43,620 nucleotides of DNA from a virus (taxonomy: Duplodnaviria > Heunggongvirae > Uroviricota > Caudoviricetes). Both the position numbers and the translations under genes were made by a program. The notes beneath the pieces were generated by a model. That model did no database searches. It saw only the letters and a program-made list of their open reading frames with translations, and was not told the origin of the DNA. The stretch spans positions 1 to 43,620 of the IMG/VR virus record IMGVR_UViG_3300045988_007060, one strand, 5' to 3'. Of the stretch, positions 5,811 through 17,163 are shown piece after piece (position 1 is the stretch's first letter; each line of letters opens with the position of its first letter).

Positions 5811-7108
5811 TTCTTAAAGAACGTGGCGGCAATAACGATGTGCACGCCTTACTGTCACCGTCAGGCGCTAAAAAGTGGCTAAGCTGTGCTGCATCACTGG
5901 CCTGTGAGAAAGATATTCCTAACACGTCCGGTAAAGCTGCGGTATTAGGCACAGCCATGCACACCATAGCGGAGGTCCATCTAAACGCCTATATCCGTGG
6001 CACTGCATTGCCGTTAGGGCGTGAAGTTGGCGCTTACGTGCTGGATGAAGGCAAAGGCCAGATTAAGGCGCTAATCAGCCCGATGAAAGGCGCGGTACTG
6101 ATTACGGCTGACATGATTGAGCAGGTGCGTAAGTACACCGATTACTGCAAAGCTATTATCGACGTGGCTACTTACGCCAAGCTGGAAATGTGCGTCAATC
6201 TTACTGAGGTATTGCATCCTGGCTACATTCATAGCCCTAACGGACGGCAAGAAGAACTACAGACATTCGGAACTTCTGACCTTGTTGCCGTACAGGAGAT
6301 GGCAAACACCGACGAGCACATGCTCATTATTGGCGACCTGAAAACAGGACGACATCGTGTCGAAGCGAAAGAAAACAAACAGCTTATGCTTTACGCTCTC
6401 GGTGTTTATCGCCGTCTCAAGAGACGTTATAACATAACAACTGTTCGTCTGGTAATCTTCCAACCGTACGCTGGTGGGGCGTCGGAGTGGGACATCTCGG
6501 TTGAAGGTCTGGAACTGTTCGCTAAGTTCGCACGGAAACGTGCACTGTTGGCGCTTGATGCATATTTCCGCGGCAAGAAGAACCTGAAAGCGTCGGACTT
6601 CAGGCCGTCGGTCGATGGCTGCCAGTGGTGTCGGTTCTCTGAACAATGCGCCGTGCGTACAAAGACGGTTAACGCAGTACTGGCAGAAGAACTGGAGGAC
6701 GACTTTGCACTGGAACTGACACCAGAGCAACTCGTAGCTGAGTACGAGAAGTTGCCGTTGTTGCGCCAGCACATCGACAAGGTTGAGAAAGCTATGGCCG
6801 CCGCTTTGCATTCCGGTAAGAAAGTGCCGGGGTATAAGCTGGTTGAAGGTCGTCCGGGTAATCGTAGCTGGAGTGATGAAAAATGGGTCGAAGAACTAGC
6901 AGCGCGCCATAACGTAGACATGGATTTGCTAACAAAGAAATCTGTTATGTCACCAACGGAAGCGGAAAAAGTGTTAAAAGGCGCGTATGCCAGGATGTGG
7001 GCCGAACTGGAAACGAAAGTTACTCGTAAGCCAGGCGCGCCATGCGTCGCAACGGCAGACGACAAACGGCCTGAGTGGAATCAGGTTAGTGAAGAAGATT
7101 TAGAATAA
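5807..7108 (+). CDS. PD-(D/E)XK Cas4/RecB-like exonuclease (DUF2800-type)
   Basis: IGDLKTGRHRV..QLMLYALGV nuclease core plus C-terminal Cys cluster DGCQWCRFSEQC; position upstream of DUF2815 and PolA. Confidence 0.75.
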   Translation: MILKERGGNNDVHALLSPSGAKKWLSCAASLACEKDIPNTSGKAAVLGTAMHTIAEVHLNAYIRGTALPLGREVGAYVLDEGKGQIKALISPMKGAVLITADMIEQVRKYTDYCKAIIDVATYAKLEMCVNLTEVLHPGYIHSPNGRQEELQTFGTSDLVAVQEMANTDEHMLIIGDLKTGRHRVEAKENKQLMLYALGVYRRLKRRYNITTVRLVIFQPYAGGASEWDISVEGLELFAKFARKRALLALDAYFRGKKNLKASDFRPSVDGCQWCRFSEQCAVRTKTVNAVLAEELEDDFALELTPEQLVAEYEKLPLLRQHIDKVEKAMAAALHSGKKVPGYKLVEGRPGNRSWSDEKWVEELAARHNVDMDLLTKKSVMSPTEAEKVLKGAYARMWAELETKVTRKPGAPCVATADDKRPEWNQVSEEDLE

Positions 7109-7112
7109 AGTG

Positions 7113-7141
7113 TTGACACCTGAATAGTTAGCTATTATAGT
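7113..7141 (+). promoter_or_regulatory. sigma70-like promoter with embedded operator
   Basis: TTGACA(7113-7118)-N17-TATAGT(7136-7141); spacer CCTGAATAGTTAGCTAT. Confidence 0.65.
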
Positions 7142-7195
7142 TCTAATCACTGGCCGGGCAGTTTCCCGGAGTAAACTTAAAAGCGAGAAATCAAG

Positions 7196-7822
7196 ATGGG
7201 ACTGAAATTAAATCTACGTAAAGTAAACACTGCATGGGTTAACGTATTCGAACGCGAAAAAGACCGTGAAAACGATGATGGCTCAATCACTAAAGGCCAG
7301 TACAGCGCGACTATTATCCTGCCATCTGACCATGCTCAAATCGATGCGCTCTACGACACTGTTTACGCTGTAGTTGAAGAAGCGTTAGGTGCAGCCGCCG
7401 CCGAGAAATGGATGAAGTCGAACTACGGCGAAGGCAAGCACATGGATAAATGCGCGATTAAAGACATTGCCGAGCGCGACAATCCGTTTGAAGACTTCCC
7501 GGAAGGATTCTACTTCAAAGCGAAGGCACAGAAACAGCCGCTGATTGTAACCTCTAAAAAAGGTGAGACTCAGGTAGAGCAGGACTTCAATGTAGACGGC
7601 GAACAGATTGAAGGTGAACAGGTTTACAGCGGCTGTGTCGCCAACGTAAGCGTTGAAATCTGGTTTAGCCAGAAATATAAAGTCCTCGGCGTTAACCTGC
7701 TGGCAATTAAATACGTCGGCGAAGGTAAAGCGTTCGGCGGTTCTAAAGTTGCTGCAAGCGTTAATGACCTGGAAGACGACGAAGAAGATGGAGCACCGCG
7801 CCGTGAACGTCGTCGCCGTTAA
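7196..7822 (+). CDS. DUF2815-type ssDNA-binding protein
   Basis: Acidic C-terminal tail (DLEDDEEDG) then RRERRRR; conserved position between DUF2800 and PolA. Confidence 0.65.
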   Translation: MGLKLNLRKVNTAWVNVFEREKDRENDDGSITKGQYSATIILPSDHAQIDALYDTVYAVVEEALGAAAAEKWMKSNYGEGKHMDKCAIKDIAERDNPFEDFPEGFYFKAKAQKQPLIVTSKKGETQVEQDFNVDGEQIEGEQVYSGCVANVSVEIWFSQKYKVLGVNLLAIKYVGEGKAFGGSKVAASVNDLEDDEEDGAPRRERRRR

Positions 7823-7842
7823 TATCTGAATCAATTTAACTA

Positions 7843-7864
7843 AGGCCCTTCATTGGGCCTTTTT
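7843..7864 (+). terminator. rho-independent terminator
   Basis: AGGCCC-TTCATT-GGGCCT followed by TTTT. Confidence 0.6.
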
Positions 7865-7883
7865 ACTAAGGGTCGAAAATAAT

Positions 7884-10800
7884 ATGGCTAATTTATTGTA
7901 TCTTGATACCGAAACATTCTCTGAAGCTGACCTAAAGAAAGTAGGGTCATACGCATACGCGGAACACGCAACAACTGAGATTATAATATGTACATACGCC
8001 GTTGATGATGGGCCTGTAGAAGTATGGGATTGCACTTCCGAACCAGTAATGCCAATAAGCCTACGCGTTGCGCTACGTAATGTTATGCGCGGGCGTATGA
8101 GAATTGTAGGCCATAACTTTTTAATGTTCGACAGGCTAGTTATGAAGCACTGCTGGGGTGTGGATATCAAACCGAGAAATACCATCGACACTATGATTCG
8201 AGCGTTTCGTCACGCGCTGCCTGGGTCACTTGATGCGCTGTGCGAAGTGCTGGGCGTATCGGCGGACAATGCAAAAGACAAACGCGGCAAGGCGCTGATT
8301 CAGCGTTTCTCTAAACCGACGCCGAAGAACTACAAAATCCGTCGATACACCGCAGAAACACACCCTGACGAGTGGGCGCTGTTCATCAAGTACGCCGTGA
8401 GCGACATCACCGCGATGCGTGAAGTCTTCCATAAACTGCCGCGTTGGGGTAACTCCGAGTTCGAGGACCGTGTACTGGAGCTGGACCAGTTAATCAATGA
8501 CCGCGGGTTTAAGGTTGACGTCGCACTGGCGGAAGCCGCGATTGAAGCCGTGGAGAAGCACAAGGCACAGTTACAGGAAGAAGCCCAACGAAAATACGGC
8601 GGCTCGCTTACTGGTAAAGACTTCCTTCCGATTCTGCGTGAACTCGCACCCGCGCACCGCATCCATAACGCACAGAAGTCGACACTGAATGACCTGCTGG
8701 CAGACGATGATTTACCCGACGATGCTCGCATGATTATAGAAATGCGCCTCGGGGCCGCGTCCACCGCATCAACGAAATATAACCCACTGCTGTTGGGCCG
8801 CTCTTCTGACGACCGACGCCGCGGTTGCTTGCAGTACGGCGGGGCAAAACGCACTCTGCGATGGGCGGGTAAAGGCTTCCAACCGCAGAACCTCGCGCGC
8901 GGGTACTATCACGATGATGAACTGGATAAAGGCATTTCAGCGTTACTTAAGGGCCGCGCGCACCGCCGTTTTGATGTCGCTAAATTAACGGCATCGACGG
9001 TGCGTAGCTGCATCATACCGGAAGCAGGACATAAGTTTGTTGTTGCCGATTATTCTAACGTTGAGGGCCGAGGGCTTGCGTGGCTTGCAGGCGAAGAAAC
9101 CGCGCTAGATACGTTCCGCGCCGGGCTGGATATTTATTGCGTAACCGCAGGTAAGATGTTTGGCATGGACCCAGACGACATTAAGAAAGAACGTAAAGAC
9201 TTGCGCCAGATTGGTAAAGCGTGCCTTCACCGTCATACCCAAGTTTTGACCGATGGCGGATTTAAGGATATTATGGCGGTTACATCAACAGATAAAGTAT
9301 GGAGCGGTGAAAAATGGGTGAATACAAAAGGCGCGCACCTTATGGGGTGGAAACCGGTAATAAATGTGGACGGGGTGCTAATGACCGAAGACCACAAAAT
9401 CTTGGCGCATTCCTGGAAGCAGGCAAAGCAACTCGCTTCAAACAGATATATGATGGGCCTCGCCCTGGAGAGAGGTATGGACGCTTGGTTATCCTGCGCG
9501 AGTTACCAAAACGACAAGGCCAAAGACAACTACTCGTCCAATGTGATTGCGGGGGGATGCCGGGGCGGGTCTATTATGACAACGTCAGAGCGGGTAAAAC
9601 CACTCAATGCAACCGCTGCGCCCTTGAAGCAACAAAAAAATATCGTAAACAGTATTTCTGCTACGAAGACGCAATGCCGGATGATGCGCACAGAACGCGA
9701 TTACTCAACCGGCTGTCCGCGGCTATCACGCGAACAACAAGCCCCAGGGATAAGGGTTATAAAAACTATGGGGCAAGAGGCATCACGGTATTCGACCAGT
9801 GGAGGACTGATAAAAGGTCTTTTCTTAGATATGTTCAAACTCTGGAAAGCTGGGATGACCCGAACCTCGAAATGGATAGAATCGACACAGACGGTAACTA
9901 CGAACCTGGAAACATTCGGTTTGTCAGCCGTTCTGAAAACTGCCGAAACAGACGGCAAATACCCGAGCTTCAACGAAAGTATGATGCAGCCGTTGCCCGC
10001 ATTGCTGAACTTGAGCGGGAAATTAACCTACTGCGAGCCGGTGTACGACCTGATTGATGTGGAAGACGGCAACCGTTTTCTTATAGCCTCAGACTCTGGC
10101 TTTCTTGTGGCGCATAACTGCGAGCTTGGCCTCGGCTACGAGGGAGGCGTCGGAGCGTTCGTTACGTTCGCTAAAAACTTAGGTCTTGACCTTATTGAGA
10201 TGGCAAAAACAATGGACGGTACATTCCCGGGCCACATATGGGCCGCTACCGCACGCGGGTACGAGTGGGCACGCATCCAGGAAGCAAAGCGGCCACCGCA
10301 TCCAGGTGAAAAGGACGACAGACCATCGTATATTCTGGACAAGAAAGTGTGGCGCACATGTGACGCGATCAAGCGTATGTGGCGCGAGTCACACCCGGAA
10401 ACAGTAGCGTTCTGGCGGGACCTTAAAGACGGAATTTTAGCCGCTGTGCGCAATCCTGGTCGTGAATTTTGGGCGGGAGCACACTTGCGCAAGAATGGCG
10501 AGCGCGCTATCCGAATCTGGAGAACAGTAGAAACCGATTCATCAGGTAGGAAGGTTCCCGGTTGGTGGTTGTGTATGGAGTTGCCGTCAGGCCGTATCCT
10601 CTCGTATCCGGGGATCGGCGTTAGCGTGACAAAAGAAACAGACGAAGACGGACGGGTAAACACGAATGTGCGAATCAAGTACCAAGGTGAAAACCAGTTA
10701 ACCCGCCAATGGACTACCCTGTACACCCACGGCGGCAAAGCCTGTGAAAACATTGTTCAGGCGTTGTGCCGTGATTTACTAGCATATGCGATGATTAATG

Positions 10801-10979
10801 TTGAGGGTGGCGGGTATCCCATCGTGCTTTCGGTACACGATGAACTGGTGTGTGAAACTCCAGATACGCCTGATTACACGGTGGCTGAACTGGAAAAATT
10901 AATGTGTTCGCTGCCTGAGTGGGCTGAGGGGTTCCCGCTTGTAGCGGAAGGTGCGGAGATGAAACGTTATGCTAAGTAA
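7884..10979 (+). CDS. family-A DNA polymerase with 3'-5' exonuclease domain, interrupted by an intein
   Basis: Exo motif LYLDTETFS; motif A VVADYSNVEGRGLAWL; motif B split as RQIGKA / intein / CELGLGYEGG; motif C LSVHDELVCE. Confidence 0.9.
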   Translation: MANLLYLDTETFSEADLKKVGSYAYAEHATTEIIICTYAVDDGPVEVWDCTSEPVMPISLRVALRNVMRGRMRIVGHNFLMFDRLVMKHCWGVDIKPRNTIDTMIRAFRHALPGSLDALCEVLGVSADNAKDKRGKALIQRFSKPTPKNYKIRRYTAETHPDEWALFIKYAVSDITAMREVFHKLPRWGNSEFEDRVLELDQLINDRGFKVDVALAEAAIEAVEKHKAQLQEEAQRKYGGSLTGKDFLPILRELAPAHRIHNAQKSTLNDLLADDDLPDDARMIIEMRLGAASTASTKYNPLLLGRSSDDRRRGCLQYGGAKRTLRWAGKGFQPQNLARGYYHDDELDKGISALLKGRAHRRFDVAKLTASTVRSCIIPEAGHKFVVADYSNVEGRGLAWLAGEETALDTFRAGLDIYCVTAGKMFGMDPDDIKKERKDLRQIGKACLHRHTQVLTDGGFKDIMAVTSTDKVWSGEKWVNTKGAHLMGWKPVINVDGVLMTEDHKILAHSWKQAKQLASNRYMMGLALERGMDAWLSCASYQNDKAKDNYSSNVIAGGCRGGSIMTTSERVKPLNATAAPLKQQKNIVNSISATKTQCRMMRTERDYSTGCPRLSREQQAPGIRVIKTMGQEASRYSTSGGLIKGLFLDMFKLWKAGMTRTSKWIESTQTVTTNLETFGLSAVLKTAETDGKYPSFNESMMQPLPALLNLSGKLTYCEPVYDLIDVEDGNRFLIASDSGFLVAHNCELGLGYEGGVGAFVTFAKNLGLDLIEMAKTMDGTFPGHIWAATARGYEWARIQEAKRPPHPGEKDDRPSYILDKKVWRTCDAIKRMWRESHPETVAFWRDLKDGILAAVRNPGREFWAGAHLRKNGERAIRIWRTVETDSSGRKVPGWWLCMELPSGRILSYPGIGVSVTKETDEDGRVNTNVRIKYQGENQLTRQWTTLYTHGGKACENIVQALCRDLLAYAMINVEGGGYPIVLSVHDELVCETPDTPDYTVAELEKLMCSLPEWAEGFPLVAEGAEMKRYAK
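9222..10118 (+). mobile_element. intein in PolA motif B (299 codons in polymerase frame)
   Basis: Begins CLHRHTQVLTDGG, TxxH block GVLMTEDHKIL, ends VYDLIDVEDGNRFLIASDSGFLVAHN then Cys+1; central part in this frame looks like off-frame sequence. Confidence 0.8.
9314..10057 (+). CDS. HNH homing endonuclease encoded in the -1 frame inside the intein
   Basis: GERYGRLVIL, CDCG..CNRC, DRIDTDGNYEPGNIRFVSRSENCRN; GGAG 9 nt before ATG 9314; true start could be further downstream. Confidence 0.7.
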   Translation: MGEYKRRAPYGVETGNKCGRGANDRRPQNLGAFLEAGKATRFKQIYDGPRPGERYGRLVILRELPKRQGQRQLLVQCDCGGMPGRVYYDNVRAGKTTQCNRCALEATKKYRKQYFCYEDAMPDDAHRTRLLNRLSAAITRTTSPRDKGYKNYGARGITVFDQWRTDKRSFLRYVQTLESWDDPNLEMDRIDTDGNYEPGNIRFVSRSENCRNRRQIPELQRKYDAAVARIAELEREINLLRAGVRPD

Positions 10980-11646: not shown

Positions 11647-11838
11647 ATGAAACACGAATATGACCGCAAACCAGCACGTGACATCGTACCGGGCGACATG
11701 ATTTTCAACGTTAAGACCCGTCGGCCTGTTGCCGTCGATACTGTGTTCGTCGAGTCGAACGGTAAACTGGTTATCGAAGATGTAACGGGTAACGTTACGG
11801 CGTTCGGGCGTAAAGAGCTTGTGCTGGTGCTGAAATGA
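11647..11838 (+). CDS. hypothetical protein
   Basis: AAGGAA RBS; stop overlaps next start. Confidence 0.5.
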   Translation: MKHEYDRKPARDIVPGDMIFNVKTRRPVAVDTVFVESNGKLVIEDVTGNVTAFGRKELVLVLK

Positions 11839-12518
11839 TTGTCTGGTCATTGTTTGACGGTTCGGGCATTATGGCCCAACCGTGGGCGGAAGCGGGCCAT
11901 ACTTGCTATTGTTTCAACTACGACGGCGCCGACCACGGAGACTACGCTCGATTGGGTGCAAAAGTTGAACATGAAAATATCCACTATATAAACGCGTGGA
12001 TTGATAATAAATTCGACTTCGACGTTGCGCCGGATATTATTTTCGCGTTCCCCCCATGCACAGATTTAGCCGTTAGCGGCGCGGCCCATTTCGAAACGAA
12101 GCGGAGAAGGAACCCAACGTTTCAGGTAGAGGCCGTGATTACATGCAAAGTGGCTGCGCGTCTGGCTAAAAAGTACAACGTACCGTATATGATTGAGAAC
12201 CCGGTTAGCGTTCTTTCGTCTTTATGGCGTAAGCCTGACTACGCGTTCAATCCGTACGAATACGGCGGCTATTTACCCGAAGACGACACGCATCCAATGT
12301 TCCCGGATGTTATCCCGGCGCGAGATGCATATGTTAAAAAGACGTGCCTGTGGGCCGGAAATGGGTTTGTTATGCCTAACGTTGCCGAGGTTGCCGTGGG
12401 CAGCGGAGATAACCCTGGTTGGGCTAAACTCGGCGGAAAGAGCGCCAGAACAAAAACAATCCGCAGCCTTACTCCGCGTGGGCTCGCAAAAGCAGTTTAC
12501 GAGGCTAATCATGTCTAA
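11835..12518 (+). CDS. DNA methyltransferase-like protein (C5-MTase-like motifs, short)
   Basis: LFDGSG (motif I-like), FPPCTDLAVSG (motif IV-like PC), MIENP (motif VI-like); only 227 aa, no obvious target-recognition domain. Confidence 0.45.
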   Translation: MIVWSLFDGSGIMAQPWAEAGHTCYCFNYDGADHGDYARLGAKVEHENIHYINAWIDNKFDFDVAPDIIFAFPPCTDLAVSGAAHFETKRRRNPTFQVEAVITCKVAARLAKKYNVPYMIENPVSVLSSLWRKPDYAFNPYEYGGYLPEDDTHPMFPDVIPARDAYVKKTCLWAGNGFVMPNVAEVAVGSGDNPGWAKLGGKSARTKTIRSLTPRGLAKAVYEANHV

Positions 12519-13935
12519 GTTTCAAAGGCGCGAGTACCAAAAGCTCATGACTTCGTTTATGTTGCGGCACAATCGCTGCAACATATGGGCAAGCATGGGT
12601 GCCGGGAAGACTGGCAGCGTACTGTGGGCATTAAACCGACTGTTCCGCAACGGCCAACTTAACGATGACGACCGCGTGTTAATACTAGCTCCGCTGCGCG
12701 TTGCGTCCGGCACATGGCCAGCAGAACAAGAGAAATGGCGATTCCCATGCCTGAGTGTCGTCGATGCCACGGGTTCGGAGAAGCGCCGCATCGCGGCGCT
12801 GGAGTCATACGCTAACGTGGTGTGCACGAACTATGAAGTTATCGAATGGCTGATTGACTACTACGGCAAAGACGACTGGCCTTTTACGGTTATCGTTGCC
12901 GATGAAAGCACGAAACTTAAATCATTCCGCAGCCGTTCCGGCGGAAGCAAGCGGGCAAAGGCGCTTAGCAAAGTGGCATTCGGTAAGGTTAAGCGTTTTA
13001 TCAACCTGACAGGTACGCCATCACCAAACGGCCTGAAGGACTTGTGGGGGCAGAACTGGTTTATTGACGCTGGCGAGCGACTGGGTTCTTCATACACCGC
13101 GTTCACCGACCGCTGGTTTAATTCGGTCCAGAAGGGTAAGTCCGCTATGGCGCGAGAGTATCATGCGCGCCCGGGGGCGGATAACGAAATTCACCAGAAG
13201 ATGAAGGACATCAGTCTCACGATTGACGCTGCCGAGTGGTTCGGGTGTGAAGCGCCTGTTATCGTGCCAGTGGAAATCGACCTGCCGAAGAAAGCACGTC
13301 AGGCGTACATCGATATGGAGGAGAAGTTATTCGCGGAACTGGAGAGCGGGGAGGTTGAAGCCGCTAACGCTGCGGCGAAGACGTCGAAGTGTTTGCAGAT
13401 TGCCTCCGGTGCCGTATATGTGTCAGGGCCAGACGGCGAAGCAACCAAAGACTGGGAGAAAGTGCACGATACGAAACTTGACGCGCTTGAGTCAATTGTC
13501 GAGGAGTTACAGGGCGCGCCGCTGCTTGTGGCTTATCAGTTCAAGCACGAACTGGAACGCATCCTGAAACGTTTCCCGCAGGCACAGGCGTTTGCAAAAG
13601 GCGCTAAGGGTAATAAGCAGATGGAAGCGTGGAACCGTGGTGAAATCGAAATACTATGCGTCCACCCTGCGTCAGCCGGTCATGGTTTAAATTTACAGGA
13701 CGGCGGGCATCATCTGGCGTTCATAAGTCAGGGATGGAACCTTGAGCACTATTTGCAGGTCGTTGAGCGTATAGGTCCAGTCCGTCAGAAACAGGCAGGA
13801 CACGAGCGCCCGGTGTTCCTCTACCACATCGTCGCTAAAGACACGCTGGACGAGGTTGTTGCCGCGCGTACGGACGAGAAAAAATCGGTACAGGAAGAGT
13901 TGCTTAATTACATGAAGAGACGAGGTAAGAAATGA
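12511..13935 (+). CDS. SNF2/DEAD-like superfamily 2 helicase
   Basis: MGAGKTG Walker A, ADESTKLK DExx box, helicase-C region HPASAGHGLNLQ; start chosen at ATG 12511 (MSKFQRREYQ). Confidence 0.85.
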   Translation: MSKFQRREYQKLMTSFMLRHNRCNIWASMGAGKTGSVLWALNRLFRNGQLNDDDRVLILAPLRVASGTWPAEQEKWRFPCLSVVDATGSEKRRIAALESYANVVCTNYEVIEWLIDYYGKDDWPFTVIVADESTKLKSFRSRSGGSKRAKALSKVAFGKVKRFINLTGTPSPNGLKDLWGQNWFIDAGERLGSSYTAFTDRWFNSVQKGKSAMAREYHARPGADNEIHQKMKDISLTIDAAEWFGCEAPVIVPVEIDLPKKARQAYIDMEEKLFAELESGEVEAANAAAKTSKCLQIASGAVYVSGPDGEATKDWEKVHDTKLDALESIVEELQGAPLLVAYQFKHELERILKRFPQAQAFAKGAKGNKQMEAWNRGEIEILCVHPASAGHGLNLQDGGHHLAFISQGWNLEHYLQVVERIGPVRQKQAGHERPVFLYHIVAKDTLDEVVAARTDEKKSVQEELLNYMKRRGKK

Positions 13936-14252: not shown

Positions 14253-14279
14253 GAAAAGGGCCTTTCGGCCCTTTTTTTT
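14253..14279. terminator. bidirectional rho-independent terminator between convergent arms
   Basis: GAAAA-GGGCC-TTTC-GGCCC-TTTTTTTT. Confidence 0.8.
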
Positions 14280-17151
14280 ATAAACTCCACGCCGCCAGAA
14301 CAGGAGCAACCAGAGCGTCACCCCACTGCGCCCCGCCAAGCTCTCCGGGATGGACGTCATCAGGTAACGATACAGTCTGGACACCAGTATCACTGGTTGT
14401 TGTGATAGTTTCGTTCATTCCGTATTTGTAGCTCATCTGCGCCCATGCAGGCGCCACAATTATTTTCTCGCCAAGGCGATTGTCGAACTTCCTGACCTTC
14501 TCCGTTATCCATTTTGCAAAGTCAGGCCAATTCTTGGGTGCACTTGCTCCCGACCAGCCAAATGCCTGGTGAGAAATAACGAAACGGGAATCCGCTATTT
14601 TCTCACGGAATTTCGCAATCATGAACTCCTGCGCGTCGGCGGTCTGCTGCGGGGTGTAGTTATAATACAAATCATTGTATCCCAGTTGGATAACCACAAC
14701 CAGTTTGTCTGATGCGCTCACGCCAGCCGCTGCCATCCATGCCGTCACATCAAAAATGTGATACCCCTCCAGATTAGGGTTATCTGCATAGCTCTGCCCG
14801 GAGTAGGCTTTATCGAAGCAATACTGCGGATAAGCAGAGAAATCTGTGCTCGTAGCGTCACGCAGGAATGGCTGCGAGAAGTTCGTCTTCTGCGTCTTCC
14901 CGATGTAGTCGAACGTCGTCCAGCCACCACGACCGTCAAAAGGAATGCCTGCTGACGGTGTATTTGGCAGAGTGTAACCTCCCTCGTCCGTTATACCACG
15001 AGTGGTTCGGGAACCAGCACCTACGTAAGCAGCACCAGTGGCATTGATGGCGAAGTACAACCAAGGAACGCAACGTTCACCAAGTGAGTCCATAATAGTA
15101 GCGACTTTCACGTTACCGGTCTGAGTCGCCGCCAGTTTGGTGAACGCAGCTTTCTTACGAAATACATCCCCAGAACCATCAGCACGAGCATTAACGTTCA
15201 GCGTTGGTCCGTTGATTTCTGACGGCATTATCGTTGCGTCAGGCACAACATTTTTAAGTAATACTGGCTTTCCCTCATACCCATGACTGGACAGCACAAC
15301 GTCAGTATTATTTCGCCACGGGCGAGCACCACTGACCATATTGGCACCATAAAAACGCAATGGACGACCATCTACAGCATAAAAATATGCCGGGAAAATA
15401 ACGTCAGTATTCTGGTTAGTGACCTGCCCGTTTTCCAGTGCGGTAACTCTGGTGTTGAGTGAATCTGCGGACGTCATGAGTCCGTACAAAATAGCTGTGG
15501 CTGGGGTGAAAAATACCCCATCGGCAGAAACAGGAATCATCGTCACATCGGCTTGATACCCACCTGATTTTGCTGCTGAGTACACACCCCACCCAGAGAA
15601 AACCTGCCCCGAAGCTAATGCGAGGTCCACTTCATGATAATTACCGTCTGCAATGAGAGCCTTTTCATTTGCCCCCCACGCATTACCATTACGACTCTGA
15701 ATCTTCAGTGCCGCATTAGATGATGCAATTTTATACATCATCTTGACGGTTGAAACGCCAGATACTGGGGTGATTGTGTTCATCAATTGCTTATACGCGG
15801 TTCCGGCATCGGAAAGAGTATAGGTGTAAGGTGAACTGTTAACGAAAGAGTCGAAGGTAGAATCTTGTGACAAAATAGCAAGAACAGCATTGGCTGAAGC
15901 GATTGAAGAATATAGCGCGTCAATCTGTTCGGTCAGTGAGTTTTTCTGTCCGAAGTTTACCTCTGCAAATATACTCCCTGATGAAACTTCTGCTTTTGAG
16001 TAGATTTTAATCTGCTTAGTGTCTGCCGTAGCTGTCAGGATAACAGTCTGCCGTGCATCACCATTAGTCAATTGGACTTCGTCGCTGGTCCAGTTGCTAC
16101 CGTTGGCAAGTCGAGCGAATAAACGACCTGAAGTAATATCCAGCGAGTAGCTGAGCGTTACCTTCTCGCCTGAAGGAACGGAAGCGTTGGCGTACATTTC
16201 AGAGTATACGCCTGAAGCATTAGCGTAGTTCACGCGGTTGTTATTGACCTGGGAAAATGTGGAAAATGGATATCCGGTATTATTAACCCACGAATCCACA
16301 GAACCAATACGCACCTTCCCATTTAAACTGGAAATGCTATCCAGTGAGTTAAGAATTGCCGTGGTAATAGCATTTTTCTTCGATGCGTAGGCGATAATCG
16401 ATAACTGAACAGTGGTTGCAAGCCTTGTGTTCACCCCGATAGCCAGGAGCGTTGCGGTAGCTGCGGTAGCGGTAAGCTGCACTTCCTGCCAGTCATTTGA
16501 AGAGGTCAGCGTTGGCTGATTACTCACAAATGTGCCGTTCAGCGATGTTTTTAATCCAATGGTTGGGGCGCCTCCGGTTCCGCTGTATCTATAACGGACA
16601 GTGATAATGTCGCCCGCTGCAACTGTAGATAATAAAGCGGAGTAGGCCTCTCGGTACGCAATCGTATCTACTGCGGCTACGCTCATTGATACCAAGTTTT
16701 CGTTTGGCGATGAAAATGAATCAAATGAGTAAAGATTGTTATTAACCCACGAATCTACAGAACCAATGACCATTGATGCCCGTGAAGGCATTTTTCGGCC
16801 TGTGGCTGTCAAGACCCCGGCTACGTTCTGGTATTCCAGCGCCAATGCGCTGCCAGACGAATCTCTGATATACGTATAGGAATTTACTGGGATATTAGCT
16901 ATATCTGCCTGCGCGGCAGCAAGGTCCGAATATTGTTTGCTAAAAGGCACTACATTCAACGCAATATCATCAAGAACAGCTGGTAATGTTTTTTGCACCT
17001 GCCCTGTTACAGCGTTCGTTGCTTCGTCAATGTCAGCACCCCCAGCAACCCCACCGGATTTACCGGTAATGACCTCTGCCTCAAAAATCTGGTGTTTCTT
17101 GGCGGTCTGTAAATCCGCCAGGCTTAAAACGTCACCGCATCCGCTTGACAT
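14278..17151 (-). CDS. tail fiber with C-terminal SGNH/GDSL esterase domain
   Basis: AAAGAGGA RBS; C-terminal ~290 aa carry IMDSLG, LGYNDL and DDVHPGE (SGNH blocks); internal repeats GSVDSWVNN.LYSFDSFS and GSVDSWVNNTGYPFSTFS. Confidence 0.75.
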   Translation of the reverse strand: MSSGCGDVLSLADLQTAKKHQIFEAEVITGKSGGVAGGADIDEATNAVTGQVQKTLPAVLDDIALNVVPFSKQYSDLAAAQADIANIPVNSYTYIRDSSGSALALEYQNVAGVLTATGRKMPSRASMVIGSVDSWVNNNLYSFDSFSSPNENLVSMSVAAVDTIAYREAYSALLSTVAAGDIITVRYRYSGTGGAPTIGLKTSLNGTFVSNQPTLTSSNDWQEVQLTATAATATLLAIGVNTRLATTVQLSIIAYASKKNAITTAILNSLDSISSLNGKVRIGSVDSWVNNTGYPFSTFSQVNNNRVNYANASGVYSEMYANASVPSGEKVTLSYSLDITSGRLFARLANGSNWTSDEVQLTNGDARQTVILTATADTKQIKIYSKAEVSSGSIFAEVNFGQKNSLTEQIDALYSSIASANAVLAILSQDSTFDSFVNSSPYTYTLSDAGTAYKQLMNTITPVSGVSTVKMMYKIASSNAALKIQSRNGNAWGANEKALIADGNYHEVDLALASGQVFSGWGVYSAAKSGGYQADVTMIPVSADGVFFTPATAILYGLMTSADSLNTRVTALENGQVTNQNTDVIFPAYFYAVDGRPLRFYGANMVSGARPWRNNTDVVLSSHGYEGKPVLLKNVVPDATIMPSEINGPTLNVNARADGSGDVFRKKAAFTKLAATQTGNVKVATIMDSLGERCVPWLYFAINATGAAYVGAGSRTTRGITDEGGYTLPNTPSAGIPFDGRGGWTTFDYIGKTQKTNFSQPFLRDATSTDFSAYPQYCFDKAYSGQSYADNPNLEGYHIFDVTAWMAAAGVSASDKLVVVIQLGYNDLYYNYTPQQTADAQEFMIAKFREKIADSRFVISHQAFGWSGASAPKNWPDFAKWITEKVRKFDNRLGEKIIVAPAWAQMSYKYGMNETITTTSDTGVQTVSLPDDVHPGELGGAQWGDALVAPVLAAWSL

Positions 17152-17163
17152 ATAGAGTCCTCT

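Follow-up and report, generated by a model that had tools for sequence, protein, structure and literature searches.

How does a phage with a single slot for a receptor-binding protein (RBP) come to fill it with a protein unlike those of its relatives, and what would such a protein do at the cell surface? The question is raised by a gene on the minus strand of IMG/VR virus record IMGVR_UViG_3300045988_007060 (Caudoviricetes), whose full 43,620 nucleotides (nt) we refer to as the window. The gene spans 14278-17151 and encodes 957 amino acids (aa), exactly as listed in an earlier note that was made from the letters alone and that read the product as a tail fibre with a C-terminal SGNH esterase. 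The explanation that we consider probable as a whole is that this protein is the sole host-recognition fibre of an E. coli-type Kagunavirus-like phage, that all of it beyond a short adaptor is an imported cassette, and that this cassette holds surface sugar with a row of beads and deacetylates it with its tip.

The structural genes of the window are 88-90% identical in nucleotide sequence to those of E. coli phages M01, fFiEco02 and the BASEL phages Bas70-76 over 83-88% of 22.8 kb, and the window is a Kagunavirus-like (Guernseyvirinae) siphophage genome. Its tail genes follow the order tail assembly chaperone, tape measure, minor tail proteins, J-like tail protein and fibre gene, the last of which starts with ATG 13 nt past the end of the preceding gene. 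In kagunaviruses the slot after the J-like gene holds the sole RBP, normally an enzymatic tailspike, and dependence on glycan receptors is regarded as general across the subfamily (PMC11990801). The protein studied here has both the N-terminal adaptor of a Kagunavirus tailspike and the position downstream of the J-like gene. Public databases contain an identical protein under the name 'MAG TPA_asm: tail spike [Caudoviricetes sp.]', and an ENA metagenome contig carries the same phage. Past the fibre gene the minus strand bears no further gene; a 61-aa open reading frame (ORF), an SNF2-type helicase and a methyltransferase converge on it from the plus strand, which rules out a separate tail-fibre assembly gene. 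An intramolecular chaperone is also ruled out, as the fibre protein contains no chaperone domain.

Within the gene, residues 1-71 match phrog_29731 ('tail spike protein') with an E-value (E) of 1e-30. The first 153 to 197 nt match Kagunavirus tailspike genes at 82-89% (megablast), and residues from 1 to 68-85 match their products at 71-88% (tblastn). Similarity to the Kagunavirus backbone stops at about gene nt 153-197 and returns at window position ~14262-14287, which is the stop codon. The stretch from codon ~60-66 to the stop codon is thus a swapped-in cassette, brought in by a precise exchange of the gene body.

The homologues of this cassette point to its source. Among 50,697 phage records, residues ~71-957 have two counterparts, in Mydovirus K45PH128C2 (76%) and in the P2-like Klebsiella phage Kp4852-2 (73%); a tblastn search of the same records with residues 580-957 (E <= 1e-3) returned these two and a weak match in a Halocynthia phage. 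Among the protein matches listed, at least 119 clusters are 76-90% identical to the query over 87-100% of its length, and the homology to this Klebsiella/Enterobacterales prophage fibre family is collinear across beads, beta-sandwich and esterase. The hosts of the matches listed are mostly K. pneumoniae, K. variicola and K. quasipneumoniae chromosomes, with a few E. coli and one Shigella, and several of the homologues listed are already named 'SGNH/GDSL hydrolase family protein'. The homologues bear at least a dozen unrelated N-termini, including lambda-Stf-like ones (PF08400), and homology in them usually starts at query residues 53-86. The module also lies on 18 IMG/VR viral contigs, mostly from isolate genomes; at locus L017 a P2-like contractile-tail prophage context is directly seen, with sheath and tube genes after the fibre gene. 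A Kagunavirus adaptor or J-like protein occurs at none of the 18 loci carrying the module, and no second Kagunavirus-type carrier was found among them or among the 50,697 phage records. At megablast sensitivity, the module is present in only 3 of 5,426 complete E. coli genomes, and a scan of species-representative genomes with the single protein gave one remote match, in Clostridia. The Kagunavirus-like borders and the Klebsiella-prophage distribution of the homologues therefore mark the module as the fibre body of Klebsiella-associated prophages, now carried by an E. coli-type Kagunavirus. It was imported from a very common Klebsiella prophage fibre family and is not this phage's own invention.

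The joint at which such bodies may be exchanged can be recognized in the protein itself. Residues ~58-127 form a small alpha/beta domain with GRKMPS at its end, and when 1.84 billion cluster representatives were searched, most of the 245 matches (in more than 200 clusters at 50% identity) covered this neck stretch only. The neck-only matches belong to proteins of widely differing length, and the joint is thus common to hundreds of otherwise unlike fibres and spikes. Residues 26-127 are 45% identical (E 3e-25) to the N-terminus and neck of 164_08-KL2, a Klebsiella prophage fibre with demonstrated esterase activity (PMC13123978), whose sequence wholly diverges immediately past GRKMPS. The neck joint fits the N-terminal 'recombination hotspots' reported in Klebsiella RBPs (bioRxiv 10.64898/2026.05.12.724579). 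Recombination inside the cassette is suggested as well, because individual loci pair an esterase of 91% identity with beads of 72-75%.

Further observations concern the family and its loci. Serratia, Raoultella and Enterobacter have relatives at 34-40% identity, and the same beads-plus-esterase layout is found in proteins (P0121, P0124, P0137 and their kin) of Serratia marcescens (34-35%), Raoultella ornithinolytica and Enterobacter ludwigii, and at 29% identity in a protein from the genome of the alphaproteobacterium Ancylobacter; the architecture is therefore older and more widespread than the Klebsiella lineage. Some isolate genomes contain several module-bearing viral contigs: genome 2671180503 has three uncultivated viral genomes (UViGs) each with a fibre module, and 2657245431 and 2713897157 have two each (the IMG/VR loci concerned are L006/L011, L009/L014/L021 and L007/L016). 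Such polylysogens therefore hold multiple prophages with the same receptor-binding body. At two prophage loci, L006 (7301-9914, minus strand) and L015 (7219-13115, minus strand), the fibre homologue converges with a further set of genes of the opposite strand, namely at L006 with a 251-aa ORF preceded by a 614-aa protein that has its own GDSL-type domain, and at L015 with a 725-aa protein behind a J-like protein; the convergence may be explained by a second RBP or by a fibre arrangement of an invertible or alternative kind. In the record of Klebsiella phage vB_Kpn_K45PH128C2 (L001, OY978796.1), the 2.7-kb fibre homologue at 6001-8670 is overlaid by about ten short coding sequences named 'unknown function', 'GP30.8 protein' and 'exonuclease', many of them flagged as pseudogenes, and the annotation looks shifted relative to the sequence.

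What the imported body would do depends above all on its tip. The earlier note had pointed to three SGNH blocks in the C-terminal part, and these stand where it placed them: IMDSLG at aa 686-691 (15079-15096), LGYNDL at aa 823-828 (14668-14685) and DDVHPGE at aa 931-937 (14341-14361). Block II, with G743, completes the set, and the sequence thereby has all the marks of the SGNH superfamily, that is, the block I serine, the block II glycine, the block III asparagine and the block V DxxH. In alignments of 34 and 17 sequences, with relatives at 18-48% identity, S689, N826, H934 and W744 are invariant, G743 is nearly so, and D688, G743/W744 and D931 are conserved in at least 90%. The block I glycine is a methionine in the query lineage (MDS); farther relatives have the canonical GDS. 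Searching PDB sequences with the whole protein as a single query was uninformative, and a family profile was required; with it, the CE3 acetyl esterase 5b5s of Talaromyces (T. cellulolyticus) was matched at E 5.6e-8. The alignment includes blocks I, II, III and V and pairs S689 with Ser10 of 5b5s, the residue replaced by alanine in the S10A mutant entry 5b5l.

A domain search and a structure prediction, which the earlier note had named as checks on the SGNH fold, give the following picture. The Pfam GDSL families score below their gathering thresholds (PF00657, 23.3 against 23.6 bits; PF13472, 22.9 against 32.9 bits), NCBIfam has no model that matches the esterase domain, and a few close homologues carry a precomputed PF13472 match. 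At the phmmer level, only about 25 related 50%-identity clusters exist in the whole library. The domain is a divergent SGNH lineage and not a clean member of PF00657 or PF13472, and, as the Pfam score is marginal, the SGNH call rests on conservation, profile and fold. The AlphaFold2 model of residues 540-957, built from a 34-sequence alignment, has a mean predicted local distance difference test (pLDDT) of 85.5 and a predicted template modelling score (pTM) of 0.85, and runs from two helices through a beta-sandwich (aa ~589-673) to an alpha/beta domain. The best PDB matches of this model are all carbohydrate O-acetyl esterases: Foldseek places the two-domain CE2 esterases 2wao (E 1.9e-8), 2wab and 4xvh at the top and also finds the mammalian sialic-acid esterase 8f9q, Est2A and the CE3 enzymes 2vpt and 5b5s, with target-normalized TM-scores (TMt) of 0.68 and 0.64, respectively. 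The three-layer alpha/beta/alpha fold is recovered with a Foldseek probability of 1.00 and a TMt of 0.57-0.68 to single-domain CE3/GDSL proteins. The two-domain CE2 matches have TM-scores of 0.3-0.38 because the domain orientations differ, and the profile E to 2wao is 3e-3; the layout is CE2-like. Over 120 listed proteins, the query included, the esterase has the lowest column entropy (mean 0.12, with 65% of columns invariant), variability is two to three times higher in the beads (0.28-0.41), and it is greatest in the neck. Taken together, the C-terminal domain is predicted to be an SGNH fold with a complete Ser689/Gly743/Asn826/Asp931-His934 set, and conservation, profile and fold point to a putative O-acetyl esterase.

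Upstream of the tip lie repeated domains. The earlier note had seen at least two copies of a domain marked by GSVDSWVNN and SFS/TFS, and these are found at aa 130-138 and 283-291, followed by SFS (145-147) and TFS (298-300), respectively. BLASTP aligns the two copies, R1 and R2, at 38% identity over 107 aa (E 1.4e-12), and their Smith-Waterman score of 137 compares with 32.9 +/- 6.2 in 500 shuffles (z 16.8); by this measure they are genuine repeats, far beyond chance. A third copy, R3, is weakly detectable by sequence (Smith-Waterman z 3.9-4.4), and a hidden Markov model (HMM) built from R1 and R2 finds it in the query protein with an independent E-value (i-E) of 7e-3 and places it alike in every tested homologue whose identity to the query is 76% or higher (i-E 1.6e-2 to 2.5e-6). 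In the AlphaFold2 model of residues 71-575 (pLDDT 81.9), the neck is followed by three beta-sandwiches of eight to nine strands with the beta-jelly-roll fold of beta-sandwich carbohydrate-binding modules (CBMs), joined by helices at aa 261-273, 405-418 and 550-573. Foldseek matches this region to tandem CBM-like proteins (Cry1A protoxin, the Vip3 C-terminus and CBM22 tandems). Compared with the beta-jelly-roll CBMs of families CBM86, CBM4, CBM11, CBM27, CBM29 and CBM35/36, the fibre beads show only 4-13% sequence identity, and no Pfam or NCBIfam model matches the repeats over aa 128-575; the beads therefore belong to no defined CBM family. Their fold suggests that they may bind a surface sugar. 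The tandem CBMs proposed in the earlier note thus keep their fold, and their number is refined to three beads plus a fourth beta-sandwich on the esterase; the 'shaft' in which it placed them does lie upstream of the esterase and, judging from the model, would more aptly be called a string of beads with short helices in between.

The number of beads varies in the family. The starts of R1 and R2 form a direct repeat in the DNA with a 31-nt nearly identical core and a spacing of 459 nt (153 codons), which is one domain length. Homologues P0002-P0007, with 153 additional residues, contain an extra tandem R1 copy, which is 98-99% (P0002, P0004) or 75% (P0005, P0007) identical to its neighbour, and relatives at 27-40% identity have two to four bead copies. 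It is plausible that the DNA repeat is a site of unequal crossing-over that changes the bead number. The features of the gene and of its surroundings are collected in the table.

Table. Features of the receptor-binding protein gene and its upstream border (window positions; residues refer to the 957-aa product)
Feature	Position	Strand	Basis or remark
Receptor-binding protein gene, whole	14278-17151	-	ORF list; 957 aa; stop codon 14278-14280
Kagunavirus/Guernseyvirinae tailspike N-terminal adaptor, aa 1-70	16942-17151	-	phrog_29731, megablast, tblastn; only part common to relatives of this phage
Alpha/beta 'neck' ending in GRKMPS, aa 71-127	16771-16941	-	Cluster search, 164_08-KL2 alignment, model pLDDT 81-92
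Repeat R1, CBM-like beta-jelly-roll, begins IGSVDSWVNN, aa 128-262	16366-16770	-	Repeat alignment, HMM, model, Foldseek
DNA direct repeat copy 1 (start of R1)	16712-16767	.	56 nt, 77% identical to copy 2
Linker 1, aa 263-280, helix aa 261-273	16312-16365	-	Model secondary structure
Repeat R2, CBM-like beta-jelly-roll, begins IGSVDSWVNN, aa 281-412	15916-16311	-	Repeat alignment, HMM, model, Foldseek
DNA direct repeat copy 2 (start of R2)	16253-16308	.	56 nt
Linker 2, aa 413-429, helix aa 405-418	15865-15915	-	Model
Repeat R3, degenerate copy (DSFVNS), aa 430-548	15508-15864	-	Smith-Waterman, R1+R2 HMM, modelled beta-sandwich
Linker 3, aa 549-578, helices aa 550-560 and 562-573	15418-15507	-	Models; precedes the predicted enzymatic tip
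Beta-sandwich fused to esterase, aa 579-677	15121-15417	-	Model strands aa ~589-673, pLDDT mostly 83-97; CE2-like two-domain layout
Predicted SGNH (GDSL) esterase domain, aa 678-957	14281-15120	-	Foldseek probability 1.00; profile against PDB sequences
S689 codon, predicted nucleophile, block I IMDSLG	15085-15087	-	Invariant; aligned to 5b5s Ser10
G743 codon, predicted oxyanion-hole glycine, block II GRGGW	14923-14925	-	Nearly invariant; aligned to 5b5s EGHSGW
N826 codon, block III LGYND	14674-14676	-	Invariant; aligned to 5b5s LGTND
D931-D-V-H934 codons, block V DxxH, predicted triad acid and base	14350-14361	-	Aligned to 5b5s DDgVHP
Shine-Dalgarno AAGAGG	17159-17164	-	7 nt before ATG; overlaps J-like gene stop codon (17164-17166); read from upstream sequence
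J-like central tail protein gene, immediately upstream	17164-19719	-	phrog_469 and phrog_31307 'tail protein'; defines the Kagunavirus tailspike slot

Phage fibres and spikes as a class are homotrimers, and by analogy the fibre is most probably a homotrimer too. In such a particle, residues 1-70 would dock the fibre to the baseplate beside the J-like protein, the short inter-bead helices would form the central stalk of the trimer, nine CBM-like beads would project from this stalk, and three beta-sandwich/esterase units would stand at the tip. The beads could then provide a multivalent, low-affinity hold on the surface polysaccharide (capsule or O-antigen) of a Klebsiella-type cell, and the tip would strip O-acetyl groups from the polysaccharide and leave its backbone uncut. 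Cycles of binding, deacetylation and release would carry the virion down the glycan layer until the J-like tip meets the outer membrane. This walking mechanism is modelled on the one proposed for G7C gp63.1, which deacetylates O-antigen and for which both the esterase activity and the O-acetylation of the O-antigen are required for infection (PMC10743462). Likewise, the fibre of the Possum phage deacetylates O-polysaccharide (PMC9569702), and two SGNH fibres of Klebsiella prophages hydrolyse p-nitrophenyl acetate (pNP-acetate), produce no halos on 118 K-types and have no depolymerase activity (PMC13123978). SGNH fibres have been described as less K-locus-specific than beta-helix depolymerases.

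Does the tip need to be an enzyme at all? The SGNH domain could be mainly a lectin-like binding tip in which catalysis is unimportant, and the fibre a simple adhesin like non-enzymatic tail fibres. PDB entry 2w9x, whose title attributes 'divergent catalytic and non-catalytic binding functions' to CE2-type SGNH domains, would offer a precedent, and three further CBM-like domains are already present on the fibre. However, every catalytic residue is strictly or almost strictly kept in lineages at 20-40% identity, and no other part of the protein is as well conserved as the esterase. Such a pattern is expected of an active enzyme, and the related classes that were assayed proved active; a tip that only binds is quite improbable in our view. 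An active enzyme might instead attack a non-glycan ester, for example as a lipase or acylhydrolase whose substrate is lipid A or the lipids of the outer membrane, or as an O-acetyl-peptidoglycan esterase during penetration. Such a role would agree with the Pfam family name 'GDSL-like lipase/acylhydrolase' and with a profile search that touches platelet-activating factor (PAF) acetylhydrolases and entry 4k3u ('GDSL-like Lipase/Acylhydrolase family protein', E 2.3e-4), which we take to be the Neisseria O-acetyl-peptidoglycan esterase Ape1. Yet in both the fold and the profile comparison the top matches are to enzymes that remove O-acetyl groups from carbohydrates (CE2, CE3 and sialate esterases), and the domain lies at the distal end of the fibre behind three CBM-like domains, so that capsule or O-antigen would be met first; we hold a non-glycan target to be very improbable. 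All other described Kagunavirus RBPs of the same slot are enzymatic tailspikes, which raises the thought of a disguised depolymerase, in which one of the beta-rich domains would cleave the polysaccharide backbone as those tailspikes do. Neither model (aa 71-575 or aa 540-957), however, contains a predicted parallel beta-helix or beta-propeller; past the N-terminal adaptor, comparison with Pfam, PHROG and PDB gave no lyase, hydrolase or endosialidase match; the beads resemble non-catalytic CBMs; and the assayed Klebsiella SGNH fibres were halo-free on 118 K-types. A hidden depolymerase is scarcely credible, and we rejected it for want of a beta-helix.

The reading of the fibre as a glycan deacetylase with binding beads meets several points that weigh against it. 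Both assayed Klebsiella fibres have other esterase domains (a SASA type, and a different architecture), and a search of the supplements of PMC13123978 for GSVDSWVNN and IMDSLG found neither; these being different proteins, their activity is not directly transferable to the fibre described here. The Pfam GDSL score falls just short of its cut-off, block I reads MDS and not GDS, and the TM-scores of the two-domain matches are low. A CBM fold by itself is not proof of carbohydrate binding, and both structure models are monomers built on shallow alignments (30-34 sequences), the trimer and its stalk being drawn from analogy.

A bolder version of the same reading would make the cassette a 'master-key' module that recognizes and deacetylates a conserved, capsule-type-independent glycan, for example an O-acetylated O-antigen or another common Klebsiella-type polysaccharide. 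It is prompted by the 76-90% identity that is kept across at least a dozen adaptors, across siphophage, myophage, P2-like and lambda-like tails, and across several Klebsiella species and a few E. coli. We consider it unlikely. A pan-enterobacterial target such as enterobacterial common antigen is disfavoured, since the near-absence of the module from E. coli genomes argues against it. Were the 'master-key' version true, a single-RBP siphophage could pass the capsule or O-antigen layer through deacetylation alone, and swapping one cassette would shift an E. coli-type phage to Klebsiella-type surfaces.

Two other observations were made in the window, both on the plus strand. The 1031-aa ORF of a family-A DNA polymerase (7884-10979) is interrupted by an insert at ~9222-10118: matches to polymerases lie at aa 1-447 and 820-1031, with an 'endonuclease' PHROG aligned to aa 464-836. 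The insert opens with a cysteine (…IGKA|CLHRH…) and closes with …VAHN|C at aa 744-746, and because its ends show the classic intein signature it is probably an intein of about 299 aa. The methyltransferase ORF (11835-12518) and the longest ORF of the SNF2-type helicase (12193-13935) overlap by about 325 nt in different frames. In the ENA copy of the phage, the helicase gene as called encodes fewer residues (474 aa) and has no more than a few bases in common with the methyltransferase ORF; the TTG of the long helicase ORF is therefore probably not the real start.

Esterase-tipped RBPs are already known from G7C, Pectobacterium phages, Klebsiella prophages and Mydovirus. The tail fibres with SGNH domains of Klebsiella prophages were described by Otwinowska et al., PLoS Biol 2026 (PMC13123978), and are the most prevalent enzymatic RBPs of these prophages; a class of 'GDSL-like lipase-containing tail fibre' has been described in Mydovirus and listed as exclusive to myoviruses (bioRxiv 10.64898/2026.05.12.724579). 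With residues ~71-957 at 76-90% identity to more than 100 listed prophage proteins, the fibre is by sequence a clear member of the Klebsiella prophage family, and it has the neck in common with the esterase-active 164_08-KL2. It differs from these fibres in its setting, a virulent-type Kagunavirus siphophage backbone with a Kagunavirus adaptor. With G7C gp63.1 and the fibres of Pectobacterium phages such as Possum it would share the principle of an RBP whose SGNH esterase deacetylates a surface polysaccharide without depolymerizing it, an activity that is putative here. In contrast to this functional likeness, the esterase part has no detectable sequence similarity to gp63.1 (tblastn, 50,697 phage records), and the gp63.1 fold is not among the top 50 Foldseek matches of the aa 540-957 model. 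G7C and the Pectobacterium phages are also N4-like podophages, and G7C has a second fibre, whereas the phage studied here has one RBP slot.

Among enzymes, the CE2 and CE3 esterases (C. thermocellum CtCE2 2wao, T. cellulolyticus 5b5s and C. thermocellum CE3 2vpt) share the SGNH catalytic fold with the tip; the tip resembles the CE2 enzymes in its arrangement of an N-terminal beta-sandwich followed by the SGNH domain, and all four of its blocks align with CE3. Their identity to the query is nevertheless 12-16%, and the profile matches differ in strength between CE3 and CE2, as given above. CE2 enzymes use a Ser-His dyad; unlike them, the query family retains the aspartate of DxxH. In addition, CE2 and CE3 enzymes are secreted plant-cell-wall enzymes, whereas the fibre is part of a virion. 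The fibre resembles the tailspikes of other kagunaviruses (the K1-specific endosialidases and the O16-specific spikes of Bas70-76) in its slot, its N-terminal adaptor and its place as the sole glycan-directed RBP; it differs from them in that the body is wholly replaced, with CBM-like beads and an esterase in place of a beta-helix or beta-propeller.

These comparisons leave the prevailing picture of phage receptor-binding proteins unchanged. They show that a small virulent-type E. coli siphophage can take up, in its only tailspike slot, the esterase-tipped fibre that dominates Klebsiella prophages, and they provide a natural example for RBP engineering, with exchange points at the GRKMPS neck joint or codon ~60-66 and at the stop codon. 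A Kagunavirus backbone of 44 kb is also a convenient chassis in which to ask whether a phage can infect by deacetylation alone, and a bead number of two to four, varied through a recognizable repeat, gives a handle on the tuning of fibre length or avidity. Measured against the known systems, the carrier is novel, no other backbone of Kagunavirus type having been seen with the module, and so are the exact borders of the cassette, the three CBM-fold beads of variable number and the CE2-like tip.

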